Positions 765-30,780 of a stretch of 32,494 nucleotides of DNA are shown here, piece after piece (within the stretch, counting starts at the first letter, position 1; each line of letters begins with the position of its first letter). The position numbers and the translations under genes are program-made. Origin of the DNA: Candidatus Krumholzibacteriota bacterium (GTDB taxonomy: Bacteria; Krumholzibacteriota; Krumholzibacteriia; LZORAL124-64-63); contig JBDLKA010000033.1 of the NCBI GenBank assembly GCA_039714075.1, forward strand, positions 1 to 32,494. The letters run 5' to 3'. The notes beneath the pieces are model-generated. The model was not told the DNA's origin and ran no database searches. It saw only the letters and a list, made by a program, of their open reading frames with translations.

Positions 765-2872
765 CAGCCGGAAGTTCCTCCGCTTCCCGGGGCGCCGAAG
801 GCCCGGGTGTTCGTTTCGGTTAGCAACCGCTCCAGGTCGCCCGTTTCTCCGACAATGATCAACCGGTCGGTTTCGGTCAGGCCGCGGTCCGGGTCCGGCA
901 TTTCGTTGCGCATCCCTCCCAGGGCATTGCGCCGCTTGACGGCGAGAACGGAAATATTGTAACCCGACCGCAGTCCCAGGTCCCGCAAATTACGCCCCAC
1001 CCATGATTCGGGGGGCGTGAACAGCTGGACCTTGTAGGATTCAGGCAACTCCACGCAATCGTGCATCCGGGCCTCGCCGGTGATCAGGTTGATACCCATG
1101 TCCTGATGCTGCAGGACTTCCCGGTTGTAGACCTCGAAAACCCCCTGCCGGGTGATGACGCCCACCAGGACGGGGTGGTCCCGGTTGTAGAGAACCGGCA
1201 GATCACCCGAATCCTCGTGGCCGAGTTTGAGCAGACAATCCTCGAGATTGTCCCGGCGATAAACAACCGCCGGAGCCTCGTTCCGGATATCGTCCGCGAT
1301 CAGGACCTTGCTCAGGTTATCCTCGTGCAGGATGTCCTTGACGTCGTGGATGGAAATCCGCCCGGCCAGGAAGCCTCCCCCGTCGACCACGTAGTAGTGT
1401 TCATCGGAATTGGTCAGGAACAGCTTGAGGATTCCGTCAAACCCCTGGGTCACCGGTATCGTCAGCGGGTTGACCTCCATGATGTCTTCAACGTGAAAAT
1501 CCCGCAGGATCGCGCTTTCCCGGCCGAAGTTCAGTTTCCTGCCTTCGCGGGCGAACTTGAAGGTGAAGATGGAATCGGACATGAGTGAACGATAGACCAG
1601 GGCGGCGCCGATGCTCGCCAGCATCAAAGGCAGGATGACGGTGTACTGGCCGGTCATTTCGAAAAGAATCAGGATGGCTGTCAGGGGAGCACCGGTGGAC
1701 GCTCCGACCATGGAGGCCATGCCGACCATGGCGAACGTCCCGATGGCCCCGTGCGATCCGGGCACCCACATCTCCACCAGGGCGCCGAAAGCGCCGCCGA
1801 GCATTCCCCCGAGGAACAGGGCCGGCGCAAAGATGCCCCCCGAAAAGCCCGCACCCAGGGTCACGTTCACGGCCAACAGTTTCACGACCACCAGCAGAAC
1901 CATCAACCGCAGGGCCATGTGACCGTCGAGGGCCTGGACCATGGACGAATAGCCCACACCGTATACCTGAGGGAAAAAGAGGAACAGCCCCCCCAGAACA
2001 AGGCCCCCACAGGCGGGTTTTATCCAACCGGGCAGCGGCAGCCTTTCGAAGGCGTCCTCGGACATGTACAGGGTCCGCACGTAGACAACCGCGGTCAGCC
2101 CCACGATGAGGCCCAGCAACAGGTACAGGGGCAGTTCGTGGTAGCCGCTGATGGAAAAGTCGGGAACGGGGAAAGCCGGGGTGGCACCCAGGAATTCCCG
2201 GCTGACGGCGGTCGCCACGACGCTGGCCACGATGATCGGACTGAAGGTGACGACGGCAAAATCCCGCATCAGGATTTCCAGGGCGAAAAAGGCCCCGGCG
2301 ATGGGTGCGTTGAAGGTTGCGGCGATTCCCGCGGCCGCACCGCATCCGATCAGTGTGCGCAGGCGCTGGGGGGACAACCGGAGCCACTGGCCCACGGTGC
2401 TGCCCATGGCCGCCCCTATCTGAACGATGGGACCTTCCCTGCCCACCGAACCTCCGAAAGCGATCGTCAGGGCACTGGCCACCATCTTGACGACCACGAC
2501 GATGGGACGGATCACGCCCTTTTTGAAGACCAGGGCGCCCAATACTTCGGGCACTCCGTGTCCCTTGGCCTCGCGGGCGGCGAAATGGATCAGCAGGCCC
2601 ACGACCAGCCCGCCGGCCACCGGGAGGACCAGGGTCTGCCACCAAGGCGTAGTTGCCAACAGCGAGACCGTGTCCTCTCCCGGCCCGATCGTCAGGCCCT
2701 GGAAAAGGTCCACCAGCCAGCGGAACAGGATGGCCCCGAAACCGCCCAACAGGCCCACGACCACCGCCAGGACCACCATGACGGCGGTTTCATCAGGCGT
2801 GAATCGTTCCATCAGTTTGAAAAATGCTCGCCGCGGACGGTTGACGCCTCCCGCGGAGGGGATGGAATCCAT
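764..2872 (-). CDS. ClC-family chloride channel/transporter with tandem CBS domains and a C-terminal TrkA_C (RCK_C) domain
   Basis: GHGVP, GREGP, FNAPIAG and GIFAP motifs with many TM helices. CBS pair after residue ~460, then a TrkA_C-like tail (WVGRNLRDLGLR...VLAVKR...PDPD...DRLIIVG). Start placed at ATG 2872 behind a GGAG RBS. Confidence 0.9.
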   Translation of the reverse strand: MDSIPSAGGVNRPRRAFFKLMERFTPDETAVMVVLAVVVGLLGGFGAILFRWLVDLFQGLTIGPGEDTVSLLATTPWWQTLVLPVAGGLVVGLLIHFAAREAKGHGVPEVLGALVFKKGVIRPIVVVVKMVASALTIAFGGSVGREGPIVQIGAAMGSTVGQWLRLSPQRLRTLIGCGAAAGIAATFNAPIAGAFFALEILMRDFAVVTFSPIIVASVVATAVSREFLGATPAFPVPDFSISGYHELPLYLLLGLIVGLTAVVYVRTLYMSEDAFERLPLPGWIKPACGGLVLGGLFLFFPQVYGVGYSSMVQALDGHMALRLMVLLVVVKLLAVNVTLGAGFSGGIFAPALFLGGMLGGAFGALVEMWVPGSHGAIGTFAMVGMASMVGASTGAPLTAILILFEMTGQYTVILPLMLASIGAALVYRSLMSDSIFTFKFAREGRKLNFGRESAILRDFHVEDIMEVNPLTIPVTQGFDGILKLFLTNSDEHYYVVDGGGFLAGRISIHDVKDILHEDNLSKVLIADDIRNEAPAVVYRRDNLEDCLLKLGHEDSGDLPVLYNRDHPVLVGVITRQGVFEVYNREVLQHQDMGINLITGEARMHDCVELPESYKVQLFTPPESWVGRNLRDLGLRSGYNISVLAVKRRNALGGMRNEMPDPDRGLTETDRLIIVGETGDLERLLTETNTRAFGAPGSGGTSG

Positions 2873-3096
2873 GTCTTGTCTCCGTAATAAGTGAATCAAC
2901 AACCGGCCGCTGCCAGACCAGGCGACTCAATACTGGGCAACCCGGTCCGGGGCGTCAACCGGCCGTTCCCCGCCCCCATATTTTAGGCGGGACGATTCCG
3001 CATGTCCGCTGTATCATCGGGCACTTTCAGGGGCGGCCCGTGGACGAAATCCCAGGCGCCCCGCCCATGGAATCCCGTGTCCCGGAAAGAGGCGAA

Positions 3097-5805
3097 ATGT
3101 CCGATCTTTTTGCATCCGACGGCCGCCTGGCCGCCAGTGAACTCGCGCACGGCCTGCACACCGCCCGCTTCCCGAACGGTCTGAAGGTGATCATCAAGGA
3201 GGATCACCGCACCCCCGTGGCCATATGCAACGTGTGGGTCCGGGTGGGTTCCAACCGGGAGCCCAACGCCCTGCGGGGTTGGTCCCACGGCATCGAGCAC
3301 ATGCTCTTCAAAGGCACCGCACGCCGCGACGAAGGCGATTTCGCCAACGAGGTGGCCGAGGCCGGCGGCGCCACCAATGCCGGAACCGGCTACGAGACCA
3401 CCAACTACCACATCACCACTCCCGCGAACGCGCTGCCGGCGGCCGTCGACATCCTGGCCGACGCCCTTTTCCACTCAACCTTCATCCCCGAATCCCTGGA
3501 CGCCGAACGTGAGGTCCTGGTGCATGAGAACCACATGTACGACGACATCCCGTTCGGCTTCGGGGTCACCTGGCGCTGGGGAATGGAACTGGCGTTCGAC
3601 CGCAGCCCCTACCACCATCCCATCGGGGGCCGGGACGACAACCTGCGGGACCGGGACCGGGATGACATCATGGCCTTCTGGCGCTCGGCCTACCGGCCCG
3701 ACAACATGACCGTCGTCGTGGTCGGCGACGTGGATCCCGACGAAACCTTCGCCCTGCTGGAAACCCGCTTCGCCGACCCGGGAGTGGACTTCCCCGGGAC
3801 CGTGGACCCCGGTGTCGGAATCGTGGCCGAACCAACCGTGGAACCGACCCAGACGGAGCTTCGCCTGCGGGTGGAACGCGGGGACATCAACAAGGTCTAC
3901 GCCAAACTCCTTTTTCCGGGACCCGGAGAAAGCGACGGCCGGAAACACGTGCTGAGCGTCGTGCGCCGGGTCCTTTCCGACGGCCGCAGCTGCCGGCTGT
4001 ACCGGGAACTCCACGAGGAAAAAAAACTGGTCGACAATTTCACCGTGATGACCGAGACCGGACCCCGGGAAGGCGTGGTCATGGTGGACATCGAAACAGA
4101 TGCGGAAAGGCTCCCCGGCGCCCTTGCGGAAATCGCCCGGATCCTGGAGGACCTGACGGTGAATTCCTGCACGGACCAGGAACTGGAACGGGCCCGGACC
4201 CGGGTGGCCCGGTCCTTTCTGTTCGGCGCCGAAACCGTCCAGGGCCAGGCTTCGAACCTGGGGCATCATGAAGTCATGGACGACTTCGAAGGGGCCTTCC
4301 ACTTTCCGGACCGGGTCGCCCGGGTCACGCGGGGAGATGTTTCCGGGCTGTGTCGCGACCTGTTCCGCCTGGGGAATCTCAATTGCGTGATTTATCTGCC
4401 CGATGACACCGACACCGCCGCCCATTCAATCCCCACCGAGGCCGGTGCCCTGAAATCCCTGCTCGAACCGGTGCTGAACGACGGTTCCGTCGCCGAGCTG
4501 GAATTCGGGACCGGCAAGCCGGCCGCCGCCGAGCTTCCCGTCCCCGCCGTTCCCCCCTTCACGGGGCAGGCCGCCGAACCTTTCCGGACCGAATACCTGA
4601 CCTGCGGAGTGGAAGTCGATTTCCGCGTCGACCCCGCCGTCCCCATCCTTTCGGTGGCCCTGACCCTCAAGGGCGGCGCCACCGGCGAGACAGCCGCCGA
4701 CGCGGGCCTGGCCACCCTGACCCAGATGGTGCAGATCAAGGGCACCGGCCAGCTGGATTCCGAATCGCTGCACGAACTTCTGGAAGGGGAAGGCGCCGCC
4801 CTGTCGCCCCTGACCGATCGCGACTACGGGGGGTTGACCCTCAGCGGCCTGGCCGACCGCATGGACCAGGCCCTGGAGCTGACGGCGCAGCTCATCCACG
4901 AACCTTCCTTCCTCGAATCGGAAATCGAGCAGGAACGCCGGCTGGCCCTGGAACAGCTCGCGGCCATTGCCGATTCACCTTTCCAGGCGGCCGCCGTCAG
5001 GTTGCGGGAGTCGGTCTATGGGGACCATCCCTACGGGCGCCCCCTCCCCGGTACCGTCGAAAGCCTGCCCAACCTCGGGCGGGAAGAACTGCTGGCGCAG
5101 CACCGCCGCATCTGGACCAGGGAGAATCTCCGGATCGTGGTCTCGGGAGCCCTGGATCCCGAGCGTCTTCTGGGCAGGCTCGACGATCTGCTGGCCGATC
5201 TGCCCGCCGGCACCTCCGTTCCGGACCCCGACCCCGGACCGGCCCTCCTGCCGCAGGGGATCGAAGCGGCGAGAATAGAAAAAAAGCAGAATCAAAGCGT
5301 GGTTCTGGTGGCCTGGCCCGGGCCCCATTCACCGGCCGAAAACCGGGTTCCCCTGATGATGCTGAAAGAGGTCCTCAACGGCCAGAGCGGACGCCTTTTC
5401 GAGAGCCTGCGCAACCAGCGTTCCCTGTGCTACAACACCGGCACCCTGAACACCGCGGGTTTCGGACAGGGCATGTTCATGGGTTACGTCCTGACCGCCC
5501 CGGACACGGAAACCGCCGCGCGCGACGCCCTGGTGGACGAGCTCCGGGAAATGACCGCTTCGCTGGTGCCGACGGTGGAATTCGAACGCGCCCGCGCCAA
5601 GCTGCTGGGCAATCTCCTGATCAGCGCCCAGTCCAATGGAGCCCGGGTCGGCCGGACCCTGCGTGACCGCCTCTATGGCCGCAGCCCCAACGACCTCGAC
5701 CTGCTGATCCAGGCCATAGCCGCCTGCACCGCGGACGAGGTCCGGGAAGTCGCCGGCACCATGATCGATCCTGCCGACAGGTTCGAAGTGACGCTCGGCC
5801 CATGA
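3097..5805 (+). CDS. M16 family (pitrilysin/PqqL-like) zinc peptidase, fused two-half form
   Basis: HGIEH inverted zincin motif, NAGT, and a downstream Glu (ERxVLVHE). The second half lacks HxxEH but keeps the R/Y pair (RNQRSLCY). Start at ATG 3097 behind GAAAGAGG. Confidence 0.9.
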   Translation: MSDLFASDGRLAASELAHGLHTARFPNGLKVIIKEDHRTPVAICNVWVRVGSNREPNALRGWSHGIEHMLFKGTARRDEGDFANEVAEAGGATNAGTGYETTNYHITTPANALPAAVDILADALFHSTFIPESLDAEREVLVHENHMYDDIPFGFGVTWRWGMELAFDRSPYHHPIGGRDDNLRDRDRDDIMAFWRSAYRPDNMTVVVVGDVDPDETFALLETRFADPGVDFPGTVDPGVGIVAEPTVEPTQTELRLRVERGDINKVYAKLLFPGPGESDGRKHVLSVVRRVLSDGRSCRLYRELHEEKKLVDNFTVMTETGPREGVVMVDIETDAERLPGALAEIARILEDLTVNSCTDQELERARTRVARSFLFGAETVQGQASNLGHHEVMDDFEGAFHFPDRVARVTRGDVSGLCRDLFRLGNLNCVIYLPDDTDTAAHSIPTEAGALKSLLEPVLNDGSVAELEFGTGKPAAAELPVPAVPPFTGQAAEPFRTEYLTCGVEVDFRVDPAVPILSVALTLKGGATGETAADAGLATLTQMVQIKGTGQLDSESLHELLEGEGAALSPLTDRDYGGLTLSGLADRMDQALELTAQLIHEPSFLESEIEQERRLALEQLAAIADSPFQAAAVRLRESVYGDHPYGRPLPGTVESLPNLGREELLAQHRRIWTRENLRIVVSGALDPERLLGRLDDLLADLPAGTSVPDPDPGPALLPQGIEAARIEKKQNQSVVLVAWPGPHSPAENRVPLMMLKEVLNGQSGRLFESLRNQRSLCYNTGTLNTAGFGQGMFMGYVLTAPDTETAARDALVDELREMTASLVPTVEFERARAKLLGNLLISAQSNGARVGRTLRDRLYGRSPNDLDLLIQAIAACTADEVREVAGTMIDPADRFEVTLGP

Positions 5806-10709: not shown

Positions 10710-11282
10710 TCACTGGAGGAGCTCCCGGATCCCCGCCAGGGTCCGGTGGAACACCTGCCCATCGAATTCCTGCACGGCAACCTGGATCCGCCGGGTGCCC
10801 AGCGCGTCGAACACCACGATGCTCAAGCGGTCTTCCGCCAGGTCGTAGGCTTTACGGAACTCGCCGTCCCAGTCCATCAGGACCCACTCATCCGGGCTTT
10901 CGGAAAACTTGTTCCGGATGGTTCCCTTCATGAAGAAAGGCGCGCCCTCGAGATGGGCGTGCGGGAGGAATTTTACCCGGTAGCATTTCAATTCGGCCGT
11001 CAGCGAGTCCGTAAGGACCGGAGACCACTCCTCCCGGAAGGAGTTCCCTTTCCTGTCGCCGCTGATGAGCACGACGACGGAATTCCTGAAATAGCCGCTG
11101 GTGCGAAGCTTCCCCCGCTGGTCTTCGATGCAAAAATCGATCAGGGACAACGGTTCGTGCACCAGGTCGGTTTCCTCCGCCGCAGAAACGGTTTCCCCCA
11201 TTCCGGCAAACAGCAGGACAACCACCAGCGTCTGCAGGACGAAGCGGGTCGCCGAATGAAGTCCGGGACCGGTGAATCTCAT
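10710..11282 (-). CDS. Exported hypothetical protein, possibly thioredoxin-like fold without CxxC (YtfJ/ATP10-like)
   Basis: Signal-like N-terminus. DFCIEDQRGK, VLMDWDGEFRKAY and IVVFDALG resemble the redoxin-fold pattern. ATGA overlap with the nitroreductase stop. Confidence 0.55.
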   Translation of the reverse strand: MRFTGPGLHSATRFVLQTLVVVLLFAGMGETVSAAEETDLVHEPLSLIDFCIEDQRGKLRTSGYFRNSVVVLISGDRKGNSFREEWSPVLTDSLTAELKCYRVKFLPHAHLEGAPFFMKGTIRNKFSESPDEWVLMDWDGEFRKAYDLAEDRLSIVVFDALGTRRIQVAVQEFDGQVFHRTLAGIRELLQ

Positions 11283-11884
11283 CGGAACCCGTCACGGAAA
11301 ACAACATCGTCCAGGGGAAGCTGGCCGGAACGGGCACGGGCGGGTTCCAGGGCCTTGCCGACGGTGACGGCCATGATGATGTCGTGATCGGCCGGCAGGT
11401 TGATGATCTCGGCCACGGCTTCGAAATCGAACCCGACCATGGGGCAGGTGTCATATCCCATGGCCTTGGCGGCCAGCATCAGGGTCTGCCCCGCCAGCCC
11501 ACCCGAGCGGAAGTTTTCGTCCCTGCGCAAATCTTCGCTGGAACCGTAGACACCCCTGATCATGGGCACGACTGCTTCCCGCGCCTCGGCGGGTGCATCC
11601 GCCCAGTAGCGTTCCGGCTCCTGATCGTAGGCGTTGCGGTCTCCACAGATCACCACGGTCATGCTGCTGTCGGTGAACTGGGCCTGGTCGTACCCCTTTT
11701 CCCGCACCCGGCGTTTCACCTCCTGATCGGTGATCAGCACGAAGCGCCAATTCTGGATGTTGAAGGAAGTGGGCGTCAGGAGGACCGTTTCCATCAGACG
11801 GTTGATCTCGTCCGGGGTCATCTCATGCCTGGGATCGTATTTCTTTACGGACCGACGGGCCGCGATCGTTTCAAAGGTGTCCAT
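11279..11884 (-). CDS. Nitroreductase family protein
   Basis: RRSVKKY, TPTSFNIQNWRF and LMLAAKAMGYDTCPMVGFD. GGAGGAG RBS. Confidence 0.92.
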   Translation of the reverse strand: MDTFETIAARRSVKKYDPRHEMTPDEINRLMETVLLTPTSFNIQNWRFVLITDQEVKRRVREKGYDQAQFTDSSMTVVICGDRNAYDQEPERYWADAPAEAREAVVPMIRGVYGSSEDLRRDENFRSGGLAGQTLMLAAKAMGYDTCPMVGFDFEAVAEIINLPADHDIIMAVTVGKALEPARARSGQLPLDDVVFRDGFR

Positions 11885-12494: not shown

Positions 12495-15305
12495 CTACTC
12501 AATATCCCCGGGAATCGCTCCCACCGAGCGGAAGAAAGCGCCCTCGCGCGTCGCGGCACGGGAATGGGCAGCAAAAACGAGCGCCTGCCGCCGGGCCTGA
12601 TCGATCCTGCCCGCCGCCAGATTCCACCACACCTGCTCCACCCACAGCCGGATCTGCATTTCGGGCGGAGCGGTTCCGGCTCGCAACCCCTCGACCGGAG
12701 GATAATAGGCCGCGGCCGTTCCAAAGCGGTCGGCCGCTTCGCCGTAGCGTCCGGCCAGGGCCATCAGTTGCCCGCAGGTGGCGTGCTGGTTCGGGTCACC
12801 CACCATTGCGGAAAGCTGCTCCACCCAGCCGCCGTCGCCGTGCGCCAGAGCAGTCAGGGCGGCAGCCAGAGGTTGGCCGGACCGGGGATCGATTTCCGAC
12901 AGCCGCGCCCGGATGTTGTTTTCCAGGCGGCCGGCGTTGGCACCGCTCTCCCCCCCGGGCACCAACCCGTCCAGTTTGGCCTGCACGTACTGGCGATGGA
13001 GCAGCATGAGGTCGGGCCGCCGGGCCCCCGCGCCGCGCGAGGCGAGCCACCGCCTCTCCACCCCGGCAACGATTTCCCGCTGTCTGTCCTGCAGGTTCGA
13101 CAGGGCGACCTCGAAAGCCGCCAACCGAGCCCGGTCCGCGGCCGGGTCGACAAGTTCTCCTCCATTGACCTGGAAATTCTCCAGATGCCACCAGCTGTTG
13201 TGGTCACTTTGCCGGGAAACCGGATCCCGACTCCCCGACGCAGGCGCCACTTTCATGATGCGGTAATGCTCGTTGTCGTAGACGGGGATGAATCCCTGCA
13301 GGATTTCCGGCCGGAAATGCAGCTTCACCACATTCATGTCCATTGTCAGGGGGCCTGCGATTCCCGCCTGATAGGCGAGCGAACCGGGGCCGAGCCCGGT
13401 GGCCAAATTGCGGTTGATGAAGAGGAAGTCGGCCCCGTGTTCCCGGGCGAAGTCCCACAACACCGTTTCGTCCGTGGCGTAGAGGGCTTCCAGGTATCGG
13501 CGGTACCGGTGCCTGATGGCTGCGTTCTCGAACTGGGAATTCATGACGATGGGCCGGCCGGTATACAACAGCAGTTGGGGACTGACCCCGATTTCCCCCA
13601 GGAAAGCCGCCGGTTGTCCCGGCAGACGGGAACCCGGCCCCGGAGTGTTGGCCGTCACCCAGGAGAACATGCCGGTCCAGGACCGCCACAGCCTCTGGTC
13701 CGAGGCCCCCAGGTGCACATCCTGCCCCTGCCGCACGCTGCGCGTGATGCGAATCATGTCCCCCAGGTTTCCGCCCAGGTTCAATACGGGGCTGATCAAA
13801 AGCATTCCCGCGACCACCGGCAGGGCCCGCCCTCCCCAGGCCGGCGTCAGCCGCCGCACCAACCTCTCGGCGGCCACGGCCACCGCAATGGCGGCGAAAA
13901 CCAGGAAGACCACTCCCAGCCGTTCGATCAAAAGGTAGGCGGCCAGGAAGGCCGGGACCGTCAGCAGGAACGACCGTGCCAACGCGTCGATGCCCCGGCG
14001 GATGCCGGCCCACAGGCACCAGATCATCACCGGGACGACTACCCCCGCGTGAAAACCCAGTTTGGCCCAGATCTCCGCACCGGTTGGCGAGTTGAACGGA
14101 GGCGCCCAGAACACGCGGCTGTCGAACGGCAATTGGCCGGGGTCAACGGGCAGACGGAACCCGTGCACGAGTTTCTGGACGAAGAGTCCGAAGACATGAT
14201 TGTAGTCGCCCGTATAACCCCGGTTCAGGAATACCAGGGCTCCCAGCGCCCCGATCAGTCCGGTGAGAAGGAACAGTCGGGCGACCGGTGATCCGGCCGA
14301 CCCCTTTTGCCGCGTCGCCAAAATCGCGACAATGGTCCAGGCGTACAGAACGGACATGGGCAGGCTGATGAAGAACCCACGCGCCAGAAGCGAGGGCGTC
14401 AGGGCGGCCAGCAATCCGGCCAGGGTGTAGGCCGCGGGCATGAGCAGTTCGAAGGGATACTTCCGGTCCGGCGCCGGATCTGTTGGCACGTGCGCCGCCC
14501 AGCCCACAGCCGCGCCCAGCATGACTACCAGGACCAGGAACTGGCTCAGGTGCCAACCCGCCAGGACGGGAATCAACAGCACCGCCGCCAGGACCAACAG
14601 GGGAATGCTGCGGCGGCGCCAGCTCCAGAAGTGGACGGCCAGAAAAACCGCCAGGCACAGGAGGGCAAAATCCTCCTTCAGCAGAAGGGAGCCGGTCATG
14701 CGGACAAAACCCATGGTGCAGGTCGCGTAGAAGACCACCCCCAGAACCGCCGGGATCCGGCGGCAGCCCAGGGCGCGGGCGACCGCGTACAGGGGGAAGA
14801 AAACCAGGACATGGATCAAGGGAATCAGGCGCAGCAGGAATTCCGCGAAGGGTCGGGCCTGGTCACCGGCCAGGCGGTACAAAAAACCGTAGACCGGCTC
14901 CATGAGAAGGGCGTACTCGCGCCACGAATCGACCCCGGCGGGATGCTGCTGCCAGATGTCCCGGGCCAGGATTTCGGGATCCTGGAAATCGTCCACCGCG
15001 AACATCAAGGAGGTGCGGTAATGGAAAGCCCGTTCGCTCCAGAAATAACCGATGTGGCCCAGCTGGCTGGGCGGGCGGGCCGGAGGATCGGTCCGGCCCA
15101 GTTCGGGACCCGCCGCCACGATGGGCAACAGGGACGGGTCTCCCAGAACTTCATATTGCCGGTACAGGGAAGTGGCCACCGCGTTGATCATCTGCCAGGA
15201 CAGCACCGCGAGCAGCAGAACCGCAGCCAGGGCGGCGAGCTCGCGGCGGAATCCGGTCCAACCCGCCCGGGCCCGGGAATTTTTCCTTCCGGAAGGAAGG
15301 CCCAT
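12495..15305 (-). CDS. DPY19-like GT-C fold membrane glycosyltransferase (putative C-mannosyltransferase homologue) with extra helical C-terminal extension
   Basis: About a dozen TM segments with colinear motifs resembling DPY19: FWSERAFHY, DIWQQHP, LLKEDF, WHLSQF, DYNHVF, LIERL, FSWVTANT, AFLG, TGRPIVMNSQFENAAIR and VYDNEHYRIMKV. No WWDYG motif. Start at ATG 15305 behind AGGAG (936 aa). Confidence 0.75.
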   Translation of the reverse strand: MGLPSGRKNSRARAGWTGFRRELAALAAVLLLAVLSWQMINAVATSLYRQYEVLGDPSLLPIVAAGPELGRTDPPARPPSQLGHIGYFWSERAFHYRTSLMFAVDDFQDPEILARDIWQQHPAGVDSWREYALLMEPVYGFLYRLAGDQARPFAEFLLRLIPLIHVLVFFPLYAVARALGCRRIPAVLGVVFYATCTMGFVRMTGSLLLKEDFALLCLAVFLAVHFWSWRRRSIPLLVLAAVLLIPVLAGWHLSQFLVLVVMLGAAVGWAAHVPTDPAPDRKYPFELLMPAAYTLAGLLAALTPSLLARGFFISLPMSVLYAWTIVAILATRQKGSAGSPVARLFLLTGLIGALGALVFLNRGYTGDYNHVFGLFVQKLVHGFRLPVDPGQLPFDSRVFWAPPFNSPTGAEIWAKLGFHAGVVVPVMIWCLWAGIRRGIDALARSFLLTVPAFLAAYLLIERLGVVFLVFAAIAVAVAAERLVRRLTPAWGGRALPVVAGMLLISPVLNLGGNLGDMIRITRSVRQGQDVHLGASDQRLWRSWTGMFSWVTANTPGPGSRLPGQPAAFLGEIGVSPQLLLYTGRPIVMNSQFENAAIRHRYRRYLEALYATDETVLWDFAREHGADFLFINRNLATGLGPGSLAYQAGIAGPLTMDMNVVKLHFRPEILQGFIPVYDNEHYRIMKVAPASGSRDPVSRQSDHNSWWHLENFQVNGGELVDPAADRARLAAFEVALSNLQDRQREIVAGVERRWLASRGAGARRPDLMLLHRQYVQAKLDGLVPGGESGANAGRLENNIRARLSEIDPRSGQPLAAALTALAHGDGGWVEQLSAMVGDPNQHATCGQLMALAGRYGEAADRFGTAAAYYPPVEGLRAGTAPPEMQIRLWVEQVWWNLAAGRIDQARRQALVFAAHSRAATREGAFFRSVGAIPGDIE

Positions 15306-15435: not shown

Positions 15436-16299
15436 ATGCCGCGCCCTTCCACCGCACGCGTCGCCGGAATACTTTTCCTGGCCCTCGTTGTCGTCATGAT
15501 GCCCGGGATTTCAGCCGGCGGCGGCCTGGGAATCCCCTCCAGCCAAAGCGGTCTGGGTTTCGGGAATTTGCCAAACTTTTCCGGTGTGCGGTTCAATCTT
15601 GTGGACCGGGACGTTGAGCGGGTGAACGGTCTGAACTTCACCTTCTGGATACCCAAAGAAAACAAATCCGCCGTTTACCAGGGTGTGTCCCTCGGGCTGG
15701 TGGGACACGAGTCGGCCCTGACCCAGGGTATTGCCCTGGGGTTGATCGGTGTCGGCAGCGGCGATATCCAGGGCGTGGCCCTGGGCGGCATCGGCGTCGG
15801 AGCCGGTAACATCCAAGGTGTGACCCTGGGCGGCATCGGCGTCGGGGCCGAGGATATCCAGGGTGTGGCCATCGGCGGCATCGGTGTCGGGGGAAATGAC
15901 ATTCAGGGCGTGGCCATCGGCGGAATCGGCGTCGGCGGAAACGACATGTCCGGGATTGGAGTCGGCGGAATCGGTGTCGGCGGGGACCAATTGACGGGAA
16001 TTTTCCTGGGCGGAGTGGGCGTCGGAGGAGACGACCTGTCCGGACTGATGGCCGGCCTCGTAGGCGTCGGCGGCGACCGCATCGAAGGAGCCGCGCTGAC
16101 CCTAGGCTACCTGAAGGGCGAGTCCCTGACCGGACTGGGCGTCGCCGGGTACAGCAACGTGCGGGAAACCACCGGCCTGAGCATCGGCATCTTCAACCGA
16201 GCCCGACGTTTGAAGGGCATCCAGATCGGGCTGTTGAACCATGCCGGCAACAATCCGCGCGGCTTGCAGTGGCTGCCGGGGATCAATGCCCACTTTTGA
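15436..16299 (+). CDS. Secreted Gly-rich repeat surface protein (LA_2272-like repeat family)
   Basis: Signal peptide, 15-aa repeats xGVxxGGIGVGxxDI, GLSIGIFN/GIQIGLLN repeats, and C-terminal LPGINAHF. AAAGGAA RBS. Confidence 0.75.
   Translation: MPRPSTARVAGILFLALVVVMMPGISAGGGLGIPSSQSGLGFGNLPNFSGVRFNLVDRDVERVNGLNFTFWIPKENKSAVYQGVSLGLVGHESALTQGIALGLIGVGSGDIQGVALGGIGVGAGNIQGVTLGGIGVGAEDIQGVAIGGIGVGGNDIQGVAIGGIGVGGNDMSGIGVGGIGVGGDQLTGIFLGGVGVGGDDLSGLMAGLVGVGGDRIEGAALTLGYLKGESLTGLGVAGYSNVRETTGLSIGIFNRARRLKGIQIGLLNHAGNNPRGLQWLPGINAHF
15724..16083 (+). repeat. About 8 tandem imperfect 45-bp coding repeats (15 aa each)
   Basis: Repeated cagggygtggccmtsggcggcatcggygtcgg units. Confidence 0.85.
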
Positions 16300-16356: not shown

Positions 16357-18285
16357 TTGGCTCACGGGGTTTTCCGGAGGACTGCCTTGCCTGATTCCCG
16401 CCGATTTCGCTGGCTCAAATCCCCCTTGTTCATCCTCCTGGGCATCCTGGCCATCCTGGTGGCGGTTTTCTGGTCGCAGATGATCAACTGGATGCTGCCC
16501 GCGGACAGCCGGCCCGCCTCCATCGCCTTTACCGAGGAAATCCTCACCCAGGAAGGTTTTGAGGCGGCGGCCGCGGCTCTCGAATCAACGCCGCGCGGCG
16601 CGGCCGGAGAGTTCGGGCACATCGACCGGTTTCGTGAGGCCGGCATCCTGGCCTACAAGGGCCCGGCCACGTGTCTGGGCTGCCACGAACAGATCACCTA
16701 CCAGGATGATGAGGGCAACGAAACATCCACGGACCTCATGACCAACCTCACCTCCTCGGCCCACTACCGCTTTTTCTCCAGGGAGCACCCGAACGTCTAC
16801 GGTTTCAACGGGGAACTCGCCGACGATTTTCCGATGGGCAAGCTGAACCGGCCGTGTCCCAAGCCCGGCTCTTTCGCCATGACCGCCTGGGCGGAGCTGG
16901 TCGTCACCCAGGCAGGCGACACCCTGAGCGAGGGTTGCGGACAGTGCCACATCGGCGGCCAGTACCAGGCGCCGCTGGGCGAAATGATGCCCCTGTACCG
17001 GACCGGCGGGGATGAAAAGGACGCGATCGACTGCCTGATCTGCCACGCGACGGCCTACGACATGAACCGCAAGCAGGTCGTGACCGACGCCAATGGCCGC
17101 CGGCGGTGGGACCAGGACCGTTCTTTGCTGGCGGCCCTGTCCGTCACCTCCCCCACGGCCGAGGCCTGTCTGCGCTGCCACCAGCATAATTTCGGCGGCG
17201 ACATCTACGTCGATCCGGCCGGGCCGGAGTTCATGGACAGCCTGCGGAACCTCGGCCGCGAACGGCCCCGGGTCCAGCACCCCGGCTCCAAGCGGGGCAC
17301 CCCCTACTCGCCGAGTTGGGATGTGCATGCCGCCGCGGGAATGTCCTGCATCGAATGCCACGCCACGCGCGGCCATTTCATGGCCAAGGGCACGCACACC
17401 ACCACCGTGATGGCCAACGATCTGCCCCAGGTCGAGGTCTCCTGCCTGGACTGCCATGACCAGCCCCACGACAACCGGAGCGAGGACGGCCGGATACTGA
17501 ACGACCACCTCGACCGGGTGGCCTGCCAGACCTGCCACATCCCTTCCCTGCATCCGGACAACGTCACCCGCCGCGACTTCGGCGATACGGAATTCGAAGA
17601 GGACCCCGGCATACACATCTACCACGACCGGGTGAAGAAAAACGCGCCCGGACACGGCATCGCCTACGTGTGGTGGAACGGGGACGCGACCTTCCTCGGC
17701 AACCCCATCGGCGACAATCCCAACGGGGCCGATCTGTACAGTTTCTACGACGCCCGGTGGCGCTGGTCCGAGTTTGCCGACTTCGACTACGAGGTCTGGT
17801 ACGAGGAGGTCATGCGGCCGATCGCCAAGGCCGGCCGCCCCTCGAAGATCTATCCCATGAAAAGGTTCAACGGCCGGCAGCATATCGATCTGCAGAACAT
17901 CGGGCCGTTCGGCGGCATGTTCGTGCCCTACAACCTGCCCTCGTACTACCGTTTCGGCCACCCCGGCCAGGCCGCCCGCGTGGAGATGGACAAGAGCATG
18001 ATGGGCATGATGTACGGCTGGCTGTTCAAGTTCTACATGATGGACAAGTTCATGTCGTTCATGGCCATCGACGGCTGGAACACCCATTCGTACGTCGATG
18101 TGAGGGCCGGAAAGAAAGTCGAACCGCGCTGGCTGCCCACCGACGCCATGCTCGAGATCAGCCACGCCATCCGCCGCCAAGGCGCCCTGACCTGCAACGA
18201 TTGCCACGGCGTAGGCGGTCTGATGGATTGGCCGGCCCTGGGCTACACTCCCGAGGAAATCGACAACCTCATCATTCCCCGCTGA
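16357..18285 (+). CDS. Membrane-anchored octaheme cytochrome c, OTR (octaheme tetrathionate reductase)-like family
   Basis: Eight CxxCH motifs (CLGCH, CGQCH, CLICH, CLRCH, CIECH, CLDCH, CQTCH, CNDCH). N-terminal TM anchor. MGKLNRPC before heme 2, WDVH, HLDRVACQTCHIP and ISH...ALTCNDCH fit the OTR layout. Start uncertain (TTG 16357 or slightly downstream). Confidence 0.8.
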   Translation: MAHGVFRRTALPDSRRFRWLKSPLFILLGILAILVAVFWSQMINWMLPADSRPASIAFTEEILTQEGFEAAAAALESTPRGAAGEFGHIDRFREAGILAYKGPATCLGCHEQITYQDDEGNETSTDLMTNLTSSAHYRFFSREHPNVYGFNGELADDFPMGKLNRPCPKPGSFAMTAWAELVVTQAGDTLSEGCGQCHIGGQYQAPLGEMMPLYRTGGDEKDAIDCLICHATAYDMNRKQVVTDANGRRRWDQDRSLLAALSVTSPTAEACLRCHQHNFGGDIYVDPAGPEFMDSLRNLGRERPRVQHPGSKRGTPYSPSWDVHAAAGMSCIECHATRGHFMAKGTHTTTVMANDLPQVEVSCLDCHDQPHDNRSEDGRILNDHLDRVACQTCHIPSLHPDNVTRRDFGDTEFEEDPGIHIYHDRVKKNAPGHGIAYVWWNGDATFLGNPIGDNPNGADLYSFYDARWRWSEFADFDYEVWYEEVMRPIAKAGRPSKIYPMKRFNGRQHIDLQNIGPFGGMFVPYNLPSYYRFGHPGQAARVEMDKSMMGMMYGWLFKFYMMDKFMSFMAIDGWNTHSYVDVRAGKKVEPRWLPTDAMLEISHAIRRQGALTCNDCHGVGGLMDWPALGYTPEEIDNLIIPR

Positions 18286-18401: not shown

Positions 18402-20513
18402 ATGACGTTCCAGGTGATGCACGCGCCCCAACTCCAATCCGGGTCCCCGGAGGCCAAGAGGGACGAAATTCGCCGCTATTTTCAGACGACGTGGGAATTG
18501 TACGAGGACCTGTTCTCGCTGATGGACGGCGACCGGGCCTACTTCACGCGGGCCGATCCGCTGCGGCATCCGCTCATTTTCTACCTCGGTCATACGGCGT
18601 CCTTTTTCATCAACAAGCTGGTGCTGGCCAAGTTCATCACCGAACGGGTCAACCCCCGGTTCGAGTCGATCTTCGCCATCGGCGTGGACGAGATGAGCTG
18701 GGACGACCTGGACGAAAAGAACTACGACTGGCCGACGGTCGCCGAAGTCTGGACCTACCGGAACCAGGTGCGCGCGGTGGTCGAAAAGGTGATCGACGAC
18801 CTGCCCCTGACGCTTCCGGTCACCTGGGACGACCCTTTCTGGGTCATCCTGATGGGCGTCGAACACGAGAGGATCCACCTGGAGACCAGTTCCGTCCTGA
18901 TCCGCCAGCTACCCCTGGATCTGGTGACACCCCGGGACGCCTGGCCCGTCTGCGACACTGCGGGACCCGCCCCCGCCAATGAACTGATGGACGTCGCGGG
19001 CGGAAAGGTCGTCCTGGGGAAGCCCCGGGACCATGGCCTTTACGGGTGGGACAACGAATACGGCAGGCTGGAATCCGAGGTGGCCCCCTTCCGGGCCTCC
19101 CGCTACCTGGTGAGCAACGGCGAGTTCAGGGAATTCATCGCGGCCGAGGGATACCGCACCGAACGCTGGTGGACCGCCGAAGGGTGGGAATGGCGCAACT
19201 ACCGCCAGGCTGAATACCCCGCCTTCTGGAGGCCCGACGAAAAGGGGGATTTCCGCCTGCGATGTCTGGCCGAGGAAATCCCCATGCCCTGGGACTGGCC
19301 CGTGGAGATCAACCAGCTCGAAGCCAAGGCCTTCTGCAACTGGAAGGCCGAACAGACCGGTCGCCCCGTCCGGCTGCCGACCGAAGAGGAATGGTATCGC
19401 CTGCTGGATGTGTCCGGGATCAGGGACCAGCCCGAGTGGGACGGCGCGCCCGGGAACATCAACCTGGTAAGCCAGGCCTCCTCGTGTCCGGTGACCGAGA
19501 ACGTCACCGCCGGTTTCGGCGATGTGGTGGGCAACGTCTGGCAATGGACCGAAACCCCGATCGCGGGCTTCCCCGGTTTCCGGGTGCACCCGCTGTACGA
19601 CGACTTCTCCACGCCCACCTTCGACACCCGGCACAACCTGATCAAGGGAGGGTCCTGGATCTCGACGGGCAACGAGGCCACGCTTCACGCGCGGTACGCC
19701 TTCCGGCGCCACTTCCTGCAGCATGCCGGCTTCCGGTACATCGAATCCGAAACCGAGGCCGAAATCCGGGAAGACATCTACGAATCGGACGCCCTGGTTT
19801 CCCAGTACTGCGAATTCCACTACGGGGCGGACTATTTCGGGGTACCCAACTTCATGGTCACCGCGGCGGAAATCTGCCGGGAACTCGTGGGCGACCGCCC
19901 CATCGCCCGCGCCCTGGACCTCGGGTGCGCGACCGGCCGGGCCACCTTCGAACTGGCCCGGTTCTGCGACCAGGTCACGGGCATCGATTTCTCCGCCCGT
20001 TTCATCCGGGTGGGACACGAACTTCAGCAGAAGGGGATCACCCGCTATTCCATCAGCGAAGAAGGCGATCTGGTTTCCTACCACGAAAAGACCCTGACGG
20101 AACTGGGGCTGGAGAAGACGAAGGAAAAGGTCGAATTCTGGCAGGGGGACGCTCATAACCTGAAGGAACAGTTCGCCGGCTATGATCTGGTCCTGGCCTG
20201 CAACCTCATCGATCGGCTGTACGACCCGGCCCGCTTCCTCGACCACATCGCCGGCCGCATCAACGCCGGCGGGCTTCTGGTCCTGCTGTCGCCGTACACC
20301 TGGCTCGAGGAATTCACCCCGAAGCAGAAGTGGCTGGGCGGATTGAAAATCGACGGGGAGAACGTGACAACCCTGGACGGATTGAGGGCCCGGCTCGAAC
20401 CGGGATTCAGGATGATCGGGGAACCGCGGGACGTGGAGTTCGTGATCAGGGAAACGGCGCGGAAATTCCAGCACACGGCCAGTCAATTGACCGTGTGGGA
20501 AAAAAATGGCTGA
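18402..20513 (+). CDS. ovoA: Ovothiol biosynthesis enzyme OvoA (5-histidylcysteine sulfoxide synthase plus C-terminal SAM methyltransferase)
   Basis: DinB-like RHPLIFYLGHT and iron motif HERIHLET. FGE-sulfatase domain (GNVWQW, HPLYDDFS, KGGSW, RRHFLQHAGFRY). MTase domain (LDLGCATGR, NLIDRLY, SPYTWLEEFT, RETARKFQH). Start at ATG 18402 behind GGGAGAG. Confidence 0.9.
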   Translation: MTFQVMHAPQLQSGSPEAKRDEIRRYFQTTWELYEDLFSLMDGDRAYFTRADPLRHPLIFYLGHTASFFINKLVLAKFITERVNPRFESIFAIGVDEMSWDDLDEKNYDWPTVAEVWTYRNQVRAVVEKVIDDLPLTLPVTWDDPFWVILMGVEHERIHLETSSVLIRQLPLDLVTPRDAWPVCDTAGPAPANELMDVAGGKVVLGKPRDHGLYGWDNEYGRLESEVAPFRASRYLVSNGEFREFIAAEGYRTERWWTAEGWEWRNYRQAEYPAFWRPDEKGDFRLRCLAEEIPMPWDWPVEINQLEAKAFCNWKAEQTGRPVRLPTEEEWYRLLDVSGIRDQPEWDGAPGNINLVSQASSCPVTENVTAGFGDVVGNVWQWTETPIAGFPGFRVHPLYDDFSTPTFDTRHNLIKGGSWISTGNEATLHARYAFRRHFLQHAGFRYIESETEAEIREDIYESDALVSQYCEFHYGADYFGVPNFMVTAAEICRELVGDRPIARALDLGCATGRATFELARFCDQVTGIDFSARFIRVGHELQQKGITRYSISEEGDLVSYHEKTLTELGLEKTKEKVEFWQGDAHNLKEQFAGYDLVLACNLIDRLYDPARFLDHIAGRINAGGLLVLLSPYTWLEEFTPKQKWLGGLKIDGENVTTLDGLRARLEPGFRMIGEPRDVEFVIRETARKFQHTASQLTVWEKNG

Positions 20514-21368: not shown

Positions 21369-22271
21369 ATGAACGCAGATATCGCCCTGCCCCGTGAATG
21401 GGGTCCGTATGAACAGTTGTTCGTGCGGTATGATAAAAAACAAAAAGCCTTGTGGTACCATTTGGCACCAAGGTCGAGACCCTGTTTCAATCTTGACCTT
21501 TTGGGTGAATTGCGGGGATTCCAGCAGAAGATCAAGATGCTCAATCACGCCCATGACGCGGGTGTCGATTCGGTGCCGATCCGTTACACCATTCTCGCCA
21601 GCAGCGTGCCCGGGGTGTTCAACCTCGGCGGCGACCTGCAGCTCTTCTCCAAGTTGATCAGGGATGGCGACCGGGACGGATTGTTCAATTACGCGAAATC
21701 CTGTATCGATGTCCTGTACCCCAACGCCGTCAACTTCGACATGCCCCTGACCACCATCACCCTGGTTCAGGGCGACGCCCTGGGCGGCGGCTTCGAAGCC
21801 GCCATTTCCAGCAACGTGGTCATCGCCGAAAAGAGCGCGAAGTTCGGTCTGCCCGAGGTGCTGTTCAACCTGATTCCGGGTATGGGCGCCTACAGTTTCC
21901 TGGTGCGCCGCACCGGGCCCGACCTGGCGGAAAAAATCATCATGAGCGGCGAGCTGCTCACCGCCCAGAAAATGCTCAACCTCGGTCTGGTGGACGAGGT
22001 GGTCGAAGACGGGCAGGGTGAAGAGGCCGTCACCCGCTTCATCCAGCGCCATGGCAAACGCGGCAACGCCCATGCGGCCATGAGTCGGATCAAGAAATGC
22101 ATCAATCCGGTGACATATGAGGAACTCATCGATATCACGAAGATCTGGGTCGACGCCGCCCTGAAACTCACCAGCCGGGATCTGCGCATGATCGAACGCC
22201 TCGTCCAGGCGCAGAACCGCAGGGCCGGGGTCCAGAAAACGACGCCCAAGGCCCTTGAAGGGCTGGGCTAG
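21369..22271 (+). CDS. rpfF: RpfF-like enoyl-CoA hydratase/thioesterase (DSF fatty-acid signal synthase)
   Basis: RPCFN, LASSVPGVFNLGGDL, QGDALGGGFE and LPEVLFNLIPGMGAYSF, with both catalytic Glu retained, plus ITKIWVDAAL. Convergent with an RpfC-like kinase. AGGAGG RBS. Confidence 0.82.
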   Translation: MNADIALPREWGPYEQLFVRYDKKQKALWYHLAPRSRPCFNLDLLGELRGFQQKIKMLNHAHDAGVDSVPIRYTILASSVPGVFNLGGDLQLFSKLIRDGDRDGLFNYAKSCIDVLYPNAVNFDMPLTTITLVQGDALGGGFEAAISSNVVIAEKSAKFGLPEVLFNLIPGMGAYSFLVRRTGPDLAEKIIMSGELLTAQKMLNLGLVDEVVEDGQGEEAVTRFIQRHGKRGNAHAAMSRIKKCINPVTYEELIDITKIWVDAALKLTSRDLRMIERLVQAQNRRAGVQKTTPKALEGLG

Positions 22272-22292: not shown

Positions 22293-23966
<1,674 letters not shown>

Positions 23967-24036
23967 GCGAGGTTCCTGCGAATTGACCATCATCCGCCAT
24001 TTCCGAAAACATTTTGGTTCGATGGACTCGTCCTGG

Positions 24037-24149: not shown

Positions 24150-24899
24150 CTACCGGAACATGGCCTTGATGCTTCCCCACGTGCTCTCGTCGGTGGCCAC
24201 GGGGTTGTTGCAGCAGATGATCTCGGCGGACAGGGCGATCTCGCCCGGGAAACCGAAGTCCAGCAGATCGTTCCAGCCGGATCCGTAGTCGTTCCAGCTG
24301 GTGCAGCCGACCGGGAATTCATCGGTAACCAGGTCCGGCTCCATGCCGCTGGTGAACGCGGTCATGAACTCGAAGGAGATGCCGTACCAGTAACCGAAAT
24401 GGGCGCAGGCGCAGGCGGCATCCATCGGCAGGGAAATGTTGTAGAGGCCGGGATTGTCGATGGTCACGGTGTAGGTCGAGGAAACACATACTTCCGGACC
24501 GGGATAATGACACTGCAGGGTCTCGTCCCAGATGGCCTCTTCGAAGTCGACACGGGCGTCGAAGGTGGAGGGAACGTCTTCGGGGCCGAACTGCAGCACG
24601 AGGTTGACCGATTCCACGGTGAACCCTTCGGCGCAGGCGGTGCACAGGCCCGGGTCGGCGTAGAACATGTACTTGTACTTCTCGGCGCCCCATACCCAAT
24701 CGGTAATCGCAAAGGCGAGGGGATTCAGGTTGCCCATCTGGCAGACCCCGTTGGCGCCGGTGGGCTGGATCACCGGATTGACGGTGACCGCGTCCCCGCT
24801 GACGGGAGTGACGACGGCCTGACGGTCGGCGGCAAAAGAAGGCCCGGTCAAAAGGGCCAGGCACAGAACGGACAGGACAAGCATTGACAATTTTTTCAT
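24150..24899 (-). CDS. Secreted Cys-rich hypothetical protein with C-terminal 'PVATDESTWGSIKAMFR' motif
   Basis: Sec signal peptide (MKKLS...SFA), 10 Cys in the mature part, acidic beta-rich body, and a GGAGG RBS. Confidence 0.8.
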   Translation of the reverse strand: MKKLSMLVLSVLCLALLTGPSFAADRQAVVTPVSGDAVTVNPVIQPTGANGVCQMGNLNPLAFAITDWVWGAEKYKYMFYADPGLCTACAEGFTVESVNLVLQFGPEDVPSTFDARVDFEEAIWDETLQCHYPGPEVCVSSTYTVTIDNPGLYNISLPMDAACACAHFGYWYGISFEFMTAFTSGMEPDLVTDEFPVGCTSWNDYGSGWNDLLDFGFPGEIALSAEIICCNNPVATDESTWGSIKAMFR

Positions 24900-25136: not shown

Positions 25137-25454
25137 TCAGTCCCAGATACCGAGCTCGGCCCGCACGTCTTCGGATGCGTCTTGGCGGGGATCCCAGGGG
25201 GGGCTCCAGACCATCTCCACCTGGCACCGTTTCACTCCGGACACGGATAAAGTCTTTAGCCGCACCGAGTTCATGATTTCCGGGCCCATGGGGCACATGG
25301 GGCTGGTCAAGGTCAGGCCGATGGTGGCTTCACCGGTTTCCTCTTCAAAAGCGACCCGGCGGACAAGGCCCAGATCCACGATGTTCAGGTTCAATTCGGG
25401 ATCGATGACCCGGCGCAGGGCTTCGGTGACCGCCATTTCCAGCTGGACGCTCAT
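25137..25454 (-). CDS. sufT: DUF59/SufT metal-sulfur cluster assembly factor
   Basis: DPELNLNIVDLGLV, TLTSPMCPMG and VWSPPW. Last gene of the suf run, with a GGAGG RBS. Confidence 0.88.
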   Translation of the reverse strand: MSVQLEMAVTEALRRVIDPELNLNIVDLGLVRRVAFEEETGEATIGLTLTSPMCPMGPEIMNSVRLKTLSVSGVKRCQVEMVWSPPWDPRQDASEDVRAELGIWD

Positions 25455-25455
25455 T

Positions 25456-25929
25456 TCATACCTCCGTGGTCGCTTCACCCACCGGCCGCCCTTCCCGGCG
25501 GGCCGTTACGGCCTCCAGCAGCGTGATCCAGGGCAACAGGGCGCACTTGACGCGCACCGGGAACTTGCGCACCCCGGTCAGGACCTCCAGGTCGCCGGGA
25601 TCGAGGTCGTCGGCCAGTTCGGCCTGGTCGTCGTGCATGATCCGGCGGAAGGCCTCGGCCAGGCGGCCGGCCTCCGCCTGCGTGCGGCCGACCAGCAACT
25701 CCCCCAGGATCGAACCGCTCGCCGTGGCGATGGCGCACCCTTCGGTCTTCACCGAAACGGCGCTGATGCGGTCTCCGTCAAAAGCCAGCTGCAGGGTCAC
25801 CTCGTCGCCGCAGGAAGGGTTCTTGCCGGCGGCCCGGGCATCGGCCCGGGACAGGGGCTCGCGGCAGCGCGGGCTGCGGTGGTGGTCCAGGATCACTTCC
25901 CGGTAAAGGTCGTCCATACCCGCGTTCAT
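25456..25929 (-). CDS. sufU: SufU (NifU-family) Fe-S assembly sulfur-transfer protein
   Basis: LYREVILDH, NPSCGD, GCAIATAS and RVKCALLPW: all Cys/Asp Zn ligands present, plus the SufU-type insertion. Confidence 0.92.
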   Translation of the reverse strand: MNAGMDDLYREVILDHHRSPRCREPLSRADARAAGKNPSCGDEVTLQLAFDGDRISAVSVKTEGCAIATASGSILGELLVGRTQAEAGRLAEAFRRIMHDDQAELADDLDPGDLEVLTGVRKFPVRVKCALLPWITLLEAVTARREGRPVGEATTEV

Positions 25930-30715: not shown

Positions 30716-30780
30716 TGCGGAGTTCTGCACTTCCCTACCCCTTGCGAAGACTGACCCGGCGCCCAAAATCCAACCGGTTC

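Follow-up and report, generated by a model that had tools for sequence, protein, structure and literature searches.

A gene in the DNA of a Candidatus Krumholzibacteriota bacterium encodes a glycosyltransferase C (GT-C) protein of the DPY19 branch. The studied protein nearest to it is DPY19, with which animals add mannose to the tryptophan of proteins. The gene and its product, here called P0001, lie on the minus strand at 12495-15305 of the window, that is, of the whole stretch of 32,494 nucleotides analysed, which is the entire contig C33 of a 4.06 Mb genome (92% complete). A first-pass annotation had reported a 936-aa protein at this place and had regarded it as a bacterial DPY19 homologue. 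Both statements hold: the reading frame is uninterrupted, and DPY19 comes ahead of STT3, AglB, PglB, PMT and ArnT in profile as well as in fold comparisons.

Judged by its fold and catalytic set, P0001 would work like DPY19, and it is recognized by the family profile; two features of DPY19, Lys473 and a disulphide, are missing from it. With a probability of about one half, we read it as a metal-independent enzyme of the inner membrane, facing the periplasm, that would transfer a hexose from a polyprenyl phosphate to C2 of tryptophan in exported proteins, at a sequon other than WxxW and with clients recruited with the aid of a tail resembling tetratricopeptide repeats (TPRs). What the computations show is the fold, the conserved residues as aligned and, in the genome, a candidate for the donor synthase; topology, donor, acceptor and chemistry are inferred.

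12495..15305, minus strand: DPY19-like GT-C glycosyltransferase gene P0001, complete, 936 aa
13245..15257, minus strand: GT-C core, residues 17-687, a membrane module with an extracytoplasmic dome, superimposable on residues 23-684 of C. elegans DPY-19 (CeDPY19)
12498..13238, minus strand: C-terminal helical extension, residues ~690-936 (~245 aa), beginning with a long helix pair; residues 727-936 are TPR-like

Profile and fold comparisons

Dpy19 is the sole Pfam family that matches P0001 at E<=0.1 (35.6 bits against a cut-off of 27.2, E 4.2e-9); STT3, PMT, PMT_2 and PF11028 give no match at that threshold. A scan of NCBIfam returned zero matches, and phmmer with the single P0001 sequence found no glycosyltransferase in the Protein Data Bank (PDB). 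With each of four family profiles (A1, A2, A3 and A5), CeDPY19 is the top glycosyltransferase in the PDB, at E 1.3e-5 for A1 and 1.7e-33 for A2. Profile A3 scores CeDPY19 at 100.5 bits (E 6.6e-28) as against 78.6 bits (E 2.7e-21) for the best STT3, and profile A5 at 66.3 bits (E 1.6e-17) as against 41.7 bits (E 4.3e-10). Among the members of A3, Pfam Dpy19 recognizes 36/36 and STT3 3/36.

The fold comparisons, made with an AlphaFold2 model of P0001 (predicted local distance difference test score, pLDDT, 90.1; predicted template modelling score 0.88), give the same ranking. Foldseek places CeDPY19 best (E 1e-16). Re-alignment with VIA gives it Z 31.7, with a root-mean-square deviation of 3.1 over 596 residues, followed by STT3A (27.7) and AglB (27.6). 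In a search of 48,161 solved chains that did not depend on Foldseek, CeDPY19 is again best at Z 31.1, the next entry being STT3B (26.4); lower down are AglB (24.8), Pmt2 (20.8) and PglB (20.1), and the GT-C enzymes with glycan or lipid acceptors are found at 15.8 (ALG9), 15.0 (ArnT), 13.9 (AftB) and 13.2 (AftD). An Atlas feature search for a relative, with STT3 and PMT clusters excluded, lists Dpy19 clusters, a bacterial one ahead of those from eukaryotes; in the search without this filter, STT3-like clusters score equally, at 0.98-0.99.

The predicted active site and acceptor pocket

Residue equivalences were taken from hidden Markov model profile alignments (A1, A3) to the CeDPY19 chain, and residue roles from PMC10154233 (Results), PMC6801728 and PMC8433626. 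Conservation was counted in 275 partly redundant sequences, of which 42 were picked by a motif containing E593 and one is an AglB-like outlier. The relevant segments, named after the external loops (EL) of CeDPY19 where these apply, are as follows.

15033..15035, minus strand: Glu91, aligned by profile with the catalytic acid/base Glu71 of CeDPY19 in EL1; Glu in 72/72 covered near homologues
14667..14702, minus strand: EL2 motif R202...L209-K210-E211-D-F; R202 corresponds to CeDPY19 R211 and E211 to E220, and L209 stands at the position of the STT3 DNE Asp
14538..14555, minus strand: W251-H-L-S-Q-F; W251 corresponds to W262 (contact with donor phosphate and lipid), L253 to F264
14094..14198, minus strand: EL5 loop H370-F404; F399/W400 at Y395-C397, F404 at F401; no Cys
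13911..13922, minus strand: R462-L-G-V; R462 keeps R471, G464 replaces K473, V465 corresponds to L474
13587..13595, minus strand: E571-I-G at the position of STT3 WWD; WWD absent
13512..13556, minus strand: dome loop R584-R598, matching the acceptor loop H575-R584; S590 corresponds to P576, F592 to Y578, E593 to E579, R598 to R584

Eight residues of CeDPY19 are kept (CeDPY19 first: E71=E91, R211=R202, E220=E211, W262=W251, F401=F404, R471=R462, E579=E593, R584=R598), and five are changed conservatively (Y578=F592, P576=S590, which is a backbone contact, F264=L253, L474=V465, Y395=F399). Six positions (E/D91, R202, E211, W251, R462, E/D593) are jointly kept in 227/265 covered homologues, and every covered sequence of the P0001 clade has E91, E211, W251, R462 and E593. 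As to the first-pass annotation, the ten motifs that it quoted from the window are all present in their order, at residues 88, 115, 208, 251, 367, 459, 547, 567, 582 and 675, and their collinearity with DPY19 is borne out against the C. elegans chain. The Glu of Ser-Glu-Arg, which it took for the active-site residue, aligns with Glu71, and neither WWDYG nor WWD occurs in P0001, in agreement with the absence it had noted. The outcomes it had named as contrary, a better match to STT3/AglB, ArnT or PMT, or a misplaced Glu, were not encountered, the Glu being judged by alignment.

By alignment, two of the kept features are DPY19-like, namely the Glu of EL1 and the dome loop. The loop is conserved in P0001, and STT3 is without it; in CeDPY19 it contacts the acceptor indole (PMC10154233), and E579 within it is reported to be near-essential (PMC8433626). 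The predicted pocket for the modified tryptophan, Trp(0), would consist of F399 (or W400), F404, F592, S590 and E593. Its aromatic character is retained and both Tyr are replaced, the equivalent of Y395 being ambiguous at a one-residue alignment gap; W400 is invariant in the bacterial DPY19-like family. The residues characteristic of oligosaccharyltransferase (OST) are absent from P0001: the metal-binding Asp of DxE (L209), the EL5 Glu (P403) and WWD (E571-I-G). CeDPY19, too, is without the metal and WWD residues, and it is metal-independent (PMC10154233). The roles of the STT3 residues, that is, the DxE Asp, the EL5 Glu and the shared Arg and Glu positions, are those given in PMC6801728.

The known systems can be set beside P0001. 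CeDPY19 (PDB 7ZLG/7ZLH/7ZLI, PF10034, with the vertebrate members DPY19L1-4; family GT98 according to PMC10214176) has the same fold. With STT3, AglB and PglB, P0001 shares a membrane module and dome (Z 20-28), the R202, E211 and R462 positions and the Y/H-P-x-G segment of EL1; unlike them, it has Glu for Asp in EL1 and a DPY19-type dome loop. These enzymes constitute family GT66.

Donor supply and the proposed mechanism

The first-pass annotation had proposed to look for a polyprenol-phosphate-mannose synthase, and a candidate is encoded on contig C44 (L048) at 2510-3265. It is a GT2 gene resembling dolichol-phosphate-mannose (DPM) synthase, which is also its best PDB match (E 5e-23). The genome further has a partial GMP-PMI match and ten PMT_2 matches, and Pfam STT3 has no match in it, as far as this incomplete assembly goes. 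A lipid-phosphate sugar donor for P0001 is therefore plausible as far as the gene content goes. Several GT2 genes lie on the same contig as the DPM-synthase-like gene, as does a TMEM260-like gene (~11081-11599), and C44 is a candidate locus for bacterial protein O-mannosylation.

In the proposed mechanism, the cytoplasmic GT2 enzyme would make a polyprenyl-phosphate-hexose, probably with mannose, which would then be flipped outward. R202, R462 and W251 would hold the lipid phosphate, and the acceptor Trp would be stacked by F399/W400, F404 and F592 together with the backbone of S590. Indole C2 would attack the anomeric carbon with E91 as acid/base, as proposed for CeDPY19, and with the Lys473 site gone, clients may be picked by other local sequence, by the TPR-like tail or by both.

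The C-terminal tail

The helical extension noticed at first pass is real. It resembles TPR proteins at Z ~10 in the search of 48,161 chains, a value common for helical repeats, and in matches of profile A1; distant homologues carry clear Pfam TPRs. A single-sequence model of this C-terminal part (pLDDT 43) was not used. A GT-C module followed by TPRs is also the layout of the O-mannosyltransferases TMTC1-4 and TMEM260. Unlike P0001, these modify Ser/Thr and have a different core; P0001 is without a PF11028 or PMT-family match. In PMC10214176, TMEM260 is said to have distant bacterial homologues and TPRs are proposed as its client selectors, and by analogy the tail of P0001 may bind clients.

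Distribution and phylogeny

The bacterial DPY19-like family is large and extends across several phyla. Among 1.84 billion representatives, profile A1 matches 1,510 clusters at E<=0.001, of which 604 pass E<=1e-30; the best 150 of the 1,510 were inspected, and some of the weaker matches may be eukaryotic or TPR-only proteins. Carriers with names are also found outside the class, under the labels Ignavibacteria, Ca. Kapaibacterium, Spirochaetia and Hyphomicrobiales, and in the Atlas cluster Planctomycetota is the commonest phylum. Within its own phylum, the gene is found in 80/208 genomes, distributed over families f1 (20/90), f6 (27/43), f8 (21/23) and f9 (11/13), with none in the other five. 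The closest named relatives of P0001, at 70-78% identity, are encoded in metagenome-assembled genomes of Ca. Krumholzibacteriia, to which class the host most likely belongs. No named eukaryotic DPY19 came out of a second homologue search, and three scans gave no viral relatives.

In a FastTree phylogeny of 170 bacterial-type homologues (<55% mutual identity, 551 columns, midpoint root; the AglB-like sequence P0214 was dropped on coverage), the P0001 clade groups with Ignavibacteria and Spirochaetia sequences (support 0.97), away from the copies of f6, f8 and f9. This placement suggests transfer or old paralogy. The f8 and f9 homologues are degenerate at the active site: E91 is present in 1/5 and 4/6, R202 in 0/11, and E211 and the dome loop are lost, so that they are possible pseudo-enzymes.

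Some further observations concern individual members. The f8/f9 copies (L033:6769-9132, L036:6724-9027, L042:7135-9429 and others) retain W251, W400 and mostly R462, and they stand in a conserved gene order of PTS-EIIA, zinc ribbon, sigma54-TPR activator and NIF3, often with a SurA-like peptidyl-prolyl isomerase. Two genomes have second gene copies (L027:7665-9973; L018 and L021), the one in L027 being split near the dome loop by a frame change that is perhaps an assembly error. L062:7131-10874 is a 1,247-aa open frame with ~500 extra residues ahead of the Dpy19 match and a putative start. L023 (Ignavibacteria label) and L024 (Hyphomicrobiales label) both encode 878-aa homologues; the 2,962-base contig of L024 may be misbinned.

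Acceptors and gene neighbourhoods

Three lineages place the DPY19-like gene next to export machinery or cargo, which fits a protein acceptor. A homologue is present in 51/56 metagenome loci. An exosortase gene adjoins it in 8/56 and a TPR gene in 6/56, the latter mostly next to short forms of ~600 aa and in 3 of 6 together with a C25 peptidase bearing a type IX secretion tail. The third case is f6, with both a PorV-like barrel and a FlgD-Ig protein in 5/8 loci. Genes of polysaccharide type are likewise present in the f6 and exosortase loci, which fits a glycan acceptor.

In the eight f6 loci (L028-L032, L043, L046, L047), the neighbours of the gene include several GT-C-like membrane proteins without annotation, two of them with TPR tails, together with Wzy_C and Wzz-like genes and the PorV-like barrel and FlgD-Ig protein. 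The exosortase loci (L061, L073, L079, L084, L090, L092, L102, L104) belong to the short lineage of ~600 aa and often add EpsI, a sugar transferase, an epimerase and two redoxin genes.

Other candidate partners were tried and found no support. A secreted protein of the window (24150-24899, minus strand) ends in a tail of the form W-G-x-[VLI]-K-x-x-[YF]-R, which has 34 exact matches in the genome, occurs in 196/208 phylum genomes and gives 0 matches with a reversed control; it looks like a sorting tag. Its small +1 and aliphatic +3 residues would suit a pocket without K473. As an acceptor of P0001, the tail is unsupported: it fails to co-occur with the gene (196/208 against 80/208). Five genomes with 27-61 tail copies give just TPR-region matches, all candidates being scored, and among four gene-carrying genomes outside the phylum, two have no tail match and two have one. 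The multihaem cytochrome encoded near P0001 was dropped as a partner as well (39/90 f1 genomes against 20/90 for the gene, 14/20 having both); its W-S-E-F stretch reads W-P-E-F in 7/8 aligned copies.

Weighing the proposed function

A number of observations weigh against a tryptophan C-glycosyltransferase. P0001 and CeDPY19 share only 14% identity (VIA alignment), and the residue equivalences are those of profile alignments; R202, E211 and R462 are common to STT3 and hence not diagnostic. The Lys473 that grips Trp(+3) is lost, with G464 in P0001 and K/R in 4/275 homologues; in CeDPY19, K473A costs 90-100% of the activity (PMC10154233). H575-P576-Y578 has become N-S-F; across the family, the P576 and Y578 pair occurs in 6/275 sequences and the Y395 position is Tyr in just 3/275. 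The conserved disulphide that ties EL5 to the dome in CeDPY19 (PMC10154233) is impossible in P0001, which has Cys just at 181, 196, 217, 430 and 844. At the level of the genome, no arrays of WxxWxxW like those of thrombospondin-type repeats were found. WxxW, one of five patterns tried with gene calls and signal peptides from rough heuristics, occurs 70 times in 414 predicted secreted proteins as against 55.6 +/- 7.6 (6/200 shuffles), a weak excess. W[GAS]xW in the same proteins shows none (12 against 14.2), and WxxW is absent from the two secreted operon partners in f6. The neighbours of P0001 in the window are unrelated genes, and those among 52 proteins scanned from the metagenome loci are mostly housekeeping genes. 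Finally, the DPM-synthase-like gene occurs in 200/208 phylum genomes, thus being not specific, and its sugar is a prediction.

It is reported in PMC8433626 that CeDPY19 modifies WSEF and WSEA peptides in vitro, so Trp(+3) is not strictly required for the reaction. With the catalytic residues kept and the recognition site partly lost, the target of P0001 probably differs from that of DPY19. Of the interpretation made at first pass, homology and ranking are supported. The Gly at the Lys473 position speaks against the WxxW framing, and the predicted secreted proteins have no real sequon excess, so that an assay with WxxW peptides alone could read as a false negative.

The losses at K473 and the disulphide and the changed Y395 would also suit a DPY19-branch protein glycosyltransferase that modifies another residue or atom (O-linked on Tyr, Ser or Thr, or the indole nitrogen) of clients picked by the TPRs, C-glycosylation then being a eukaryotic innovation. 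The family retains the STT3-like Q-Y/H-P-x-G segment of EL1 and an ASW segment, and the GT-C and TPR layout is that of TMTC and TMEM260 (PMC10214176). We consider this a credible minority view, but the dome loop that contacts indole in CeDPY19 is conserved, and PMT-type folds score far lower (Z ~20). That the acceptor is instead a glycan, glycolipid or lipid-linked oligosaccharide of the cell envelope, as for ArnT, Aft/Emb or ALG enzymes, seems rather unlikely. The f6 homologues do lie among GT-C-like genes with an O-antigen-ligase-type and a Wzz-like gene, one metagenome lineage adjoins a sugar transferase and an epimerase, the dome core also exists in arabinosyltransferases (PMC10154233), and the predicted secreted proteins give no sequon signal. 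However, GT-Cs with such acceptors match much worse (Z 13.2-15.8), both nearest solved families, DPY19 and STT3, act on peptides, and there are no polysaccharide genes beside P0001 in the window.

Degenerate f8/f9 homologues persisting in a conserved gene order would suit a membrane scaffold, either non-catalytic or degenerate, to which lipid phosphate binds and which displays a TPR domain. As a reading of P0001 itself this is very unlikely, its clade having retained E91, E211, W251, R462 and E593 on a branch distinct from f8/f9. Least probable of all is a divergent OST of the STT3/AglB/PglB type that N-glycosylates Asn: STT3 chains are second-best in fold and profile comparisons and appear beside Dpy19 in the Atlas feature search, whereas WWD, the DxE Asp and the EL5 acid (P403) are missing and Pfam STT3 matches neither P0001 nor the genome. 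Transfer to Trp C2 of exported proteins is the reading we prefer.

The gene and its surroundings

P0001 is read as 936 aa and a stop, with zero internal stops, from an ATG at 15305 that is preceded by AGGAG 9 nt upstream; the same Met is the start in most close homologues. An alternative ATG 9 codons upstream (15332) is possible and is shared with 2/14 displayed homologue rows. The G+C content at third codon positions is 0.80 (genome interquartile range 0.79-0.85) and the flanking genes are plainly bacterial; therefore, P0001 is not a contaminant, nor was it recently imported from a eukaryote. No sigma-70 promoter match was found at the gene, terminators are at chance level, and no RNA holder is listed for it. 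In two genomes of genus g2, the nitroreductase and OvoA flanking genes lie ~1.1 kb apart without the P0001 homologue, the Gly-rich gene or the cytochrome, so the DPY19-like gene is dispensable within the family.

Divergent from P0001, on the plus strand, are genes for a Gly-rich GIGVG-repeat protein (15436-16299) and for an unclassified multihaem cytochrome c with weak octahaem matches below cut-off (16357-18285). They are followed by a full OvoA, the ovothiol synthase, with both NCBIfam domains above cut-off (18402-20513, plus). An enoyl-CoA-hydratase-like gene (21369-22271, plus) faces a membrane hybrid histidine kinase (22293-23993, minus), a pair that presumably resembles the RpfF/RpfC diffusible-signal pair. 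At 25137-30766 (minus), a SUF iron-sulphur operon encodes an ABC ATPase, two SufBD proteins, a class-V aminotransferase, a NifU-like protein and an FeS assembly protein.

Implications

Protein C-mannosylation is regarded as restricted to metazoans and alveolates, on the basis of glycoproteomics and enzyme occurrence (PMC12990085, 2026 review, section 4). This restriction is challenged by a family in bacteria that comprises hundreds of clusters and has its catalytic set intact. The Pfam Dpy19 label is already precomputed on bacterial homologues in databases; no description of a bacterial DPY19 was found in the literature that was searched, most subscription papers, supplements, and CAZy and InterPro pages lying outside its scope. 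If the proposed function is true, bacteria would gain a type of protein glycosylation that has no description in the literature found.

With more doubt than belief, one may extend this to the view that many uncultured phyla C-glycosylate Trp on exported proteins, at a non-WxxW sequon and on TPR-selected clients, and that this old and diverse family links STT3 with DPY19 and gave rise to the metazoan and alveolate enzyme. Natural sequences between STT3 and DPY19 would allow the origin of glycosylation by C-C bond formation, and the patchiness of eukaryotic DPY19, to be tested, and they may yield single-subunit enzymes with new sequon rules. Should the acceptor not be Trp, the family would still reveal the residues by which an OST-like scaffold becomes a C-glycosyltransferase.

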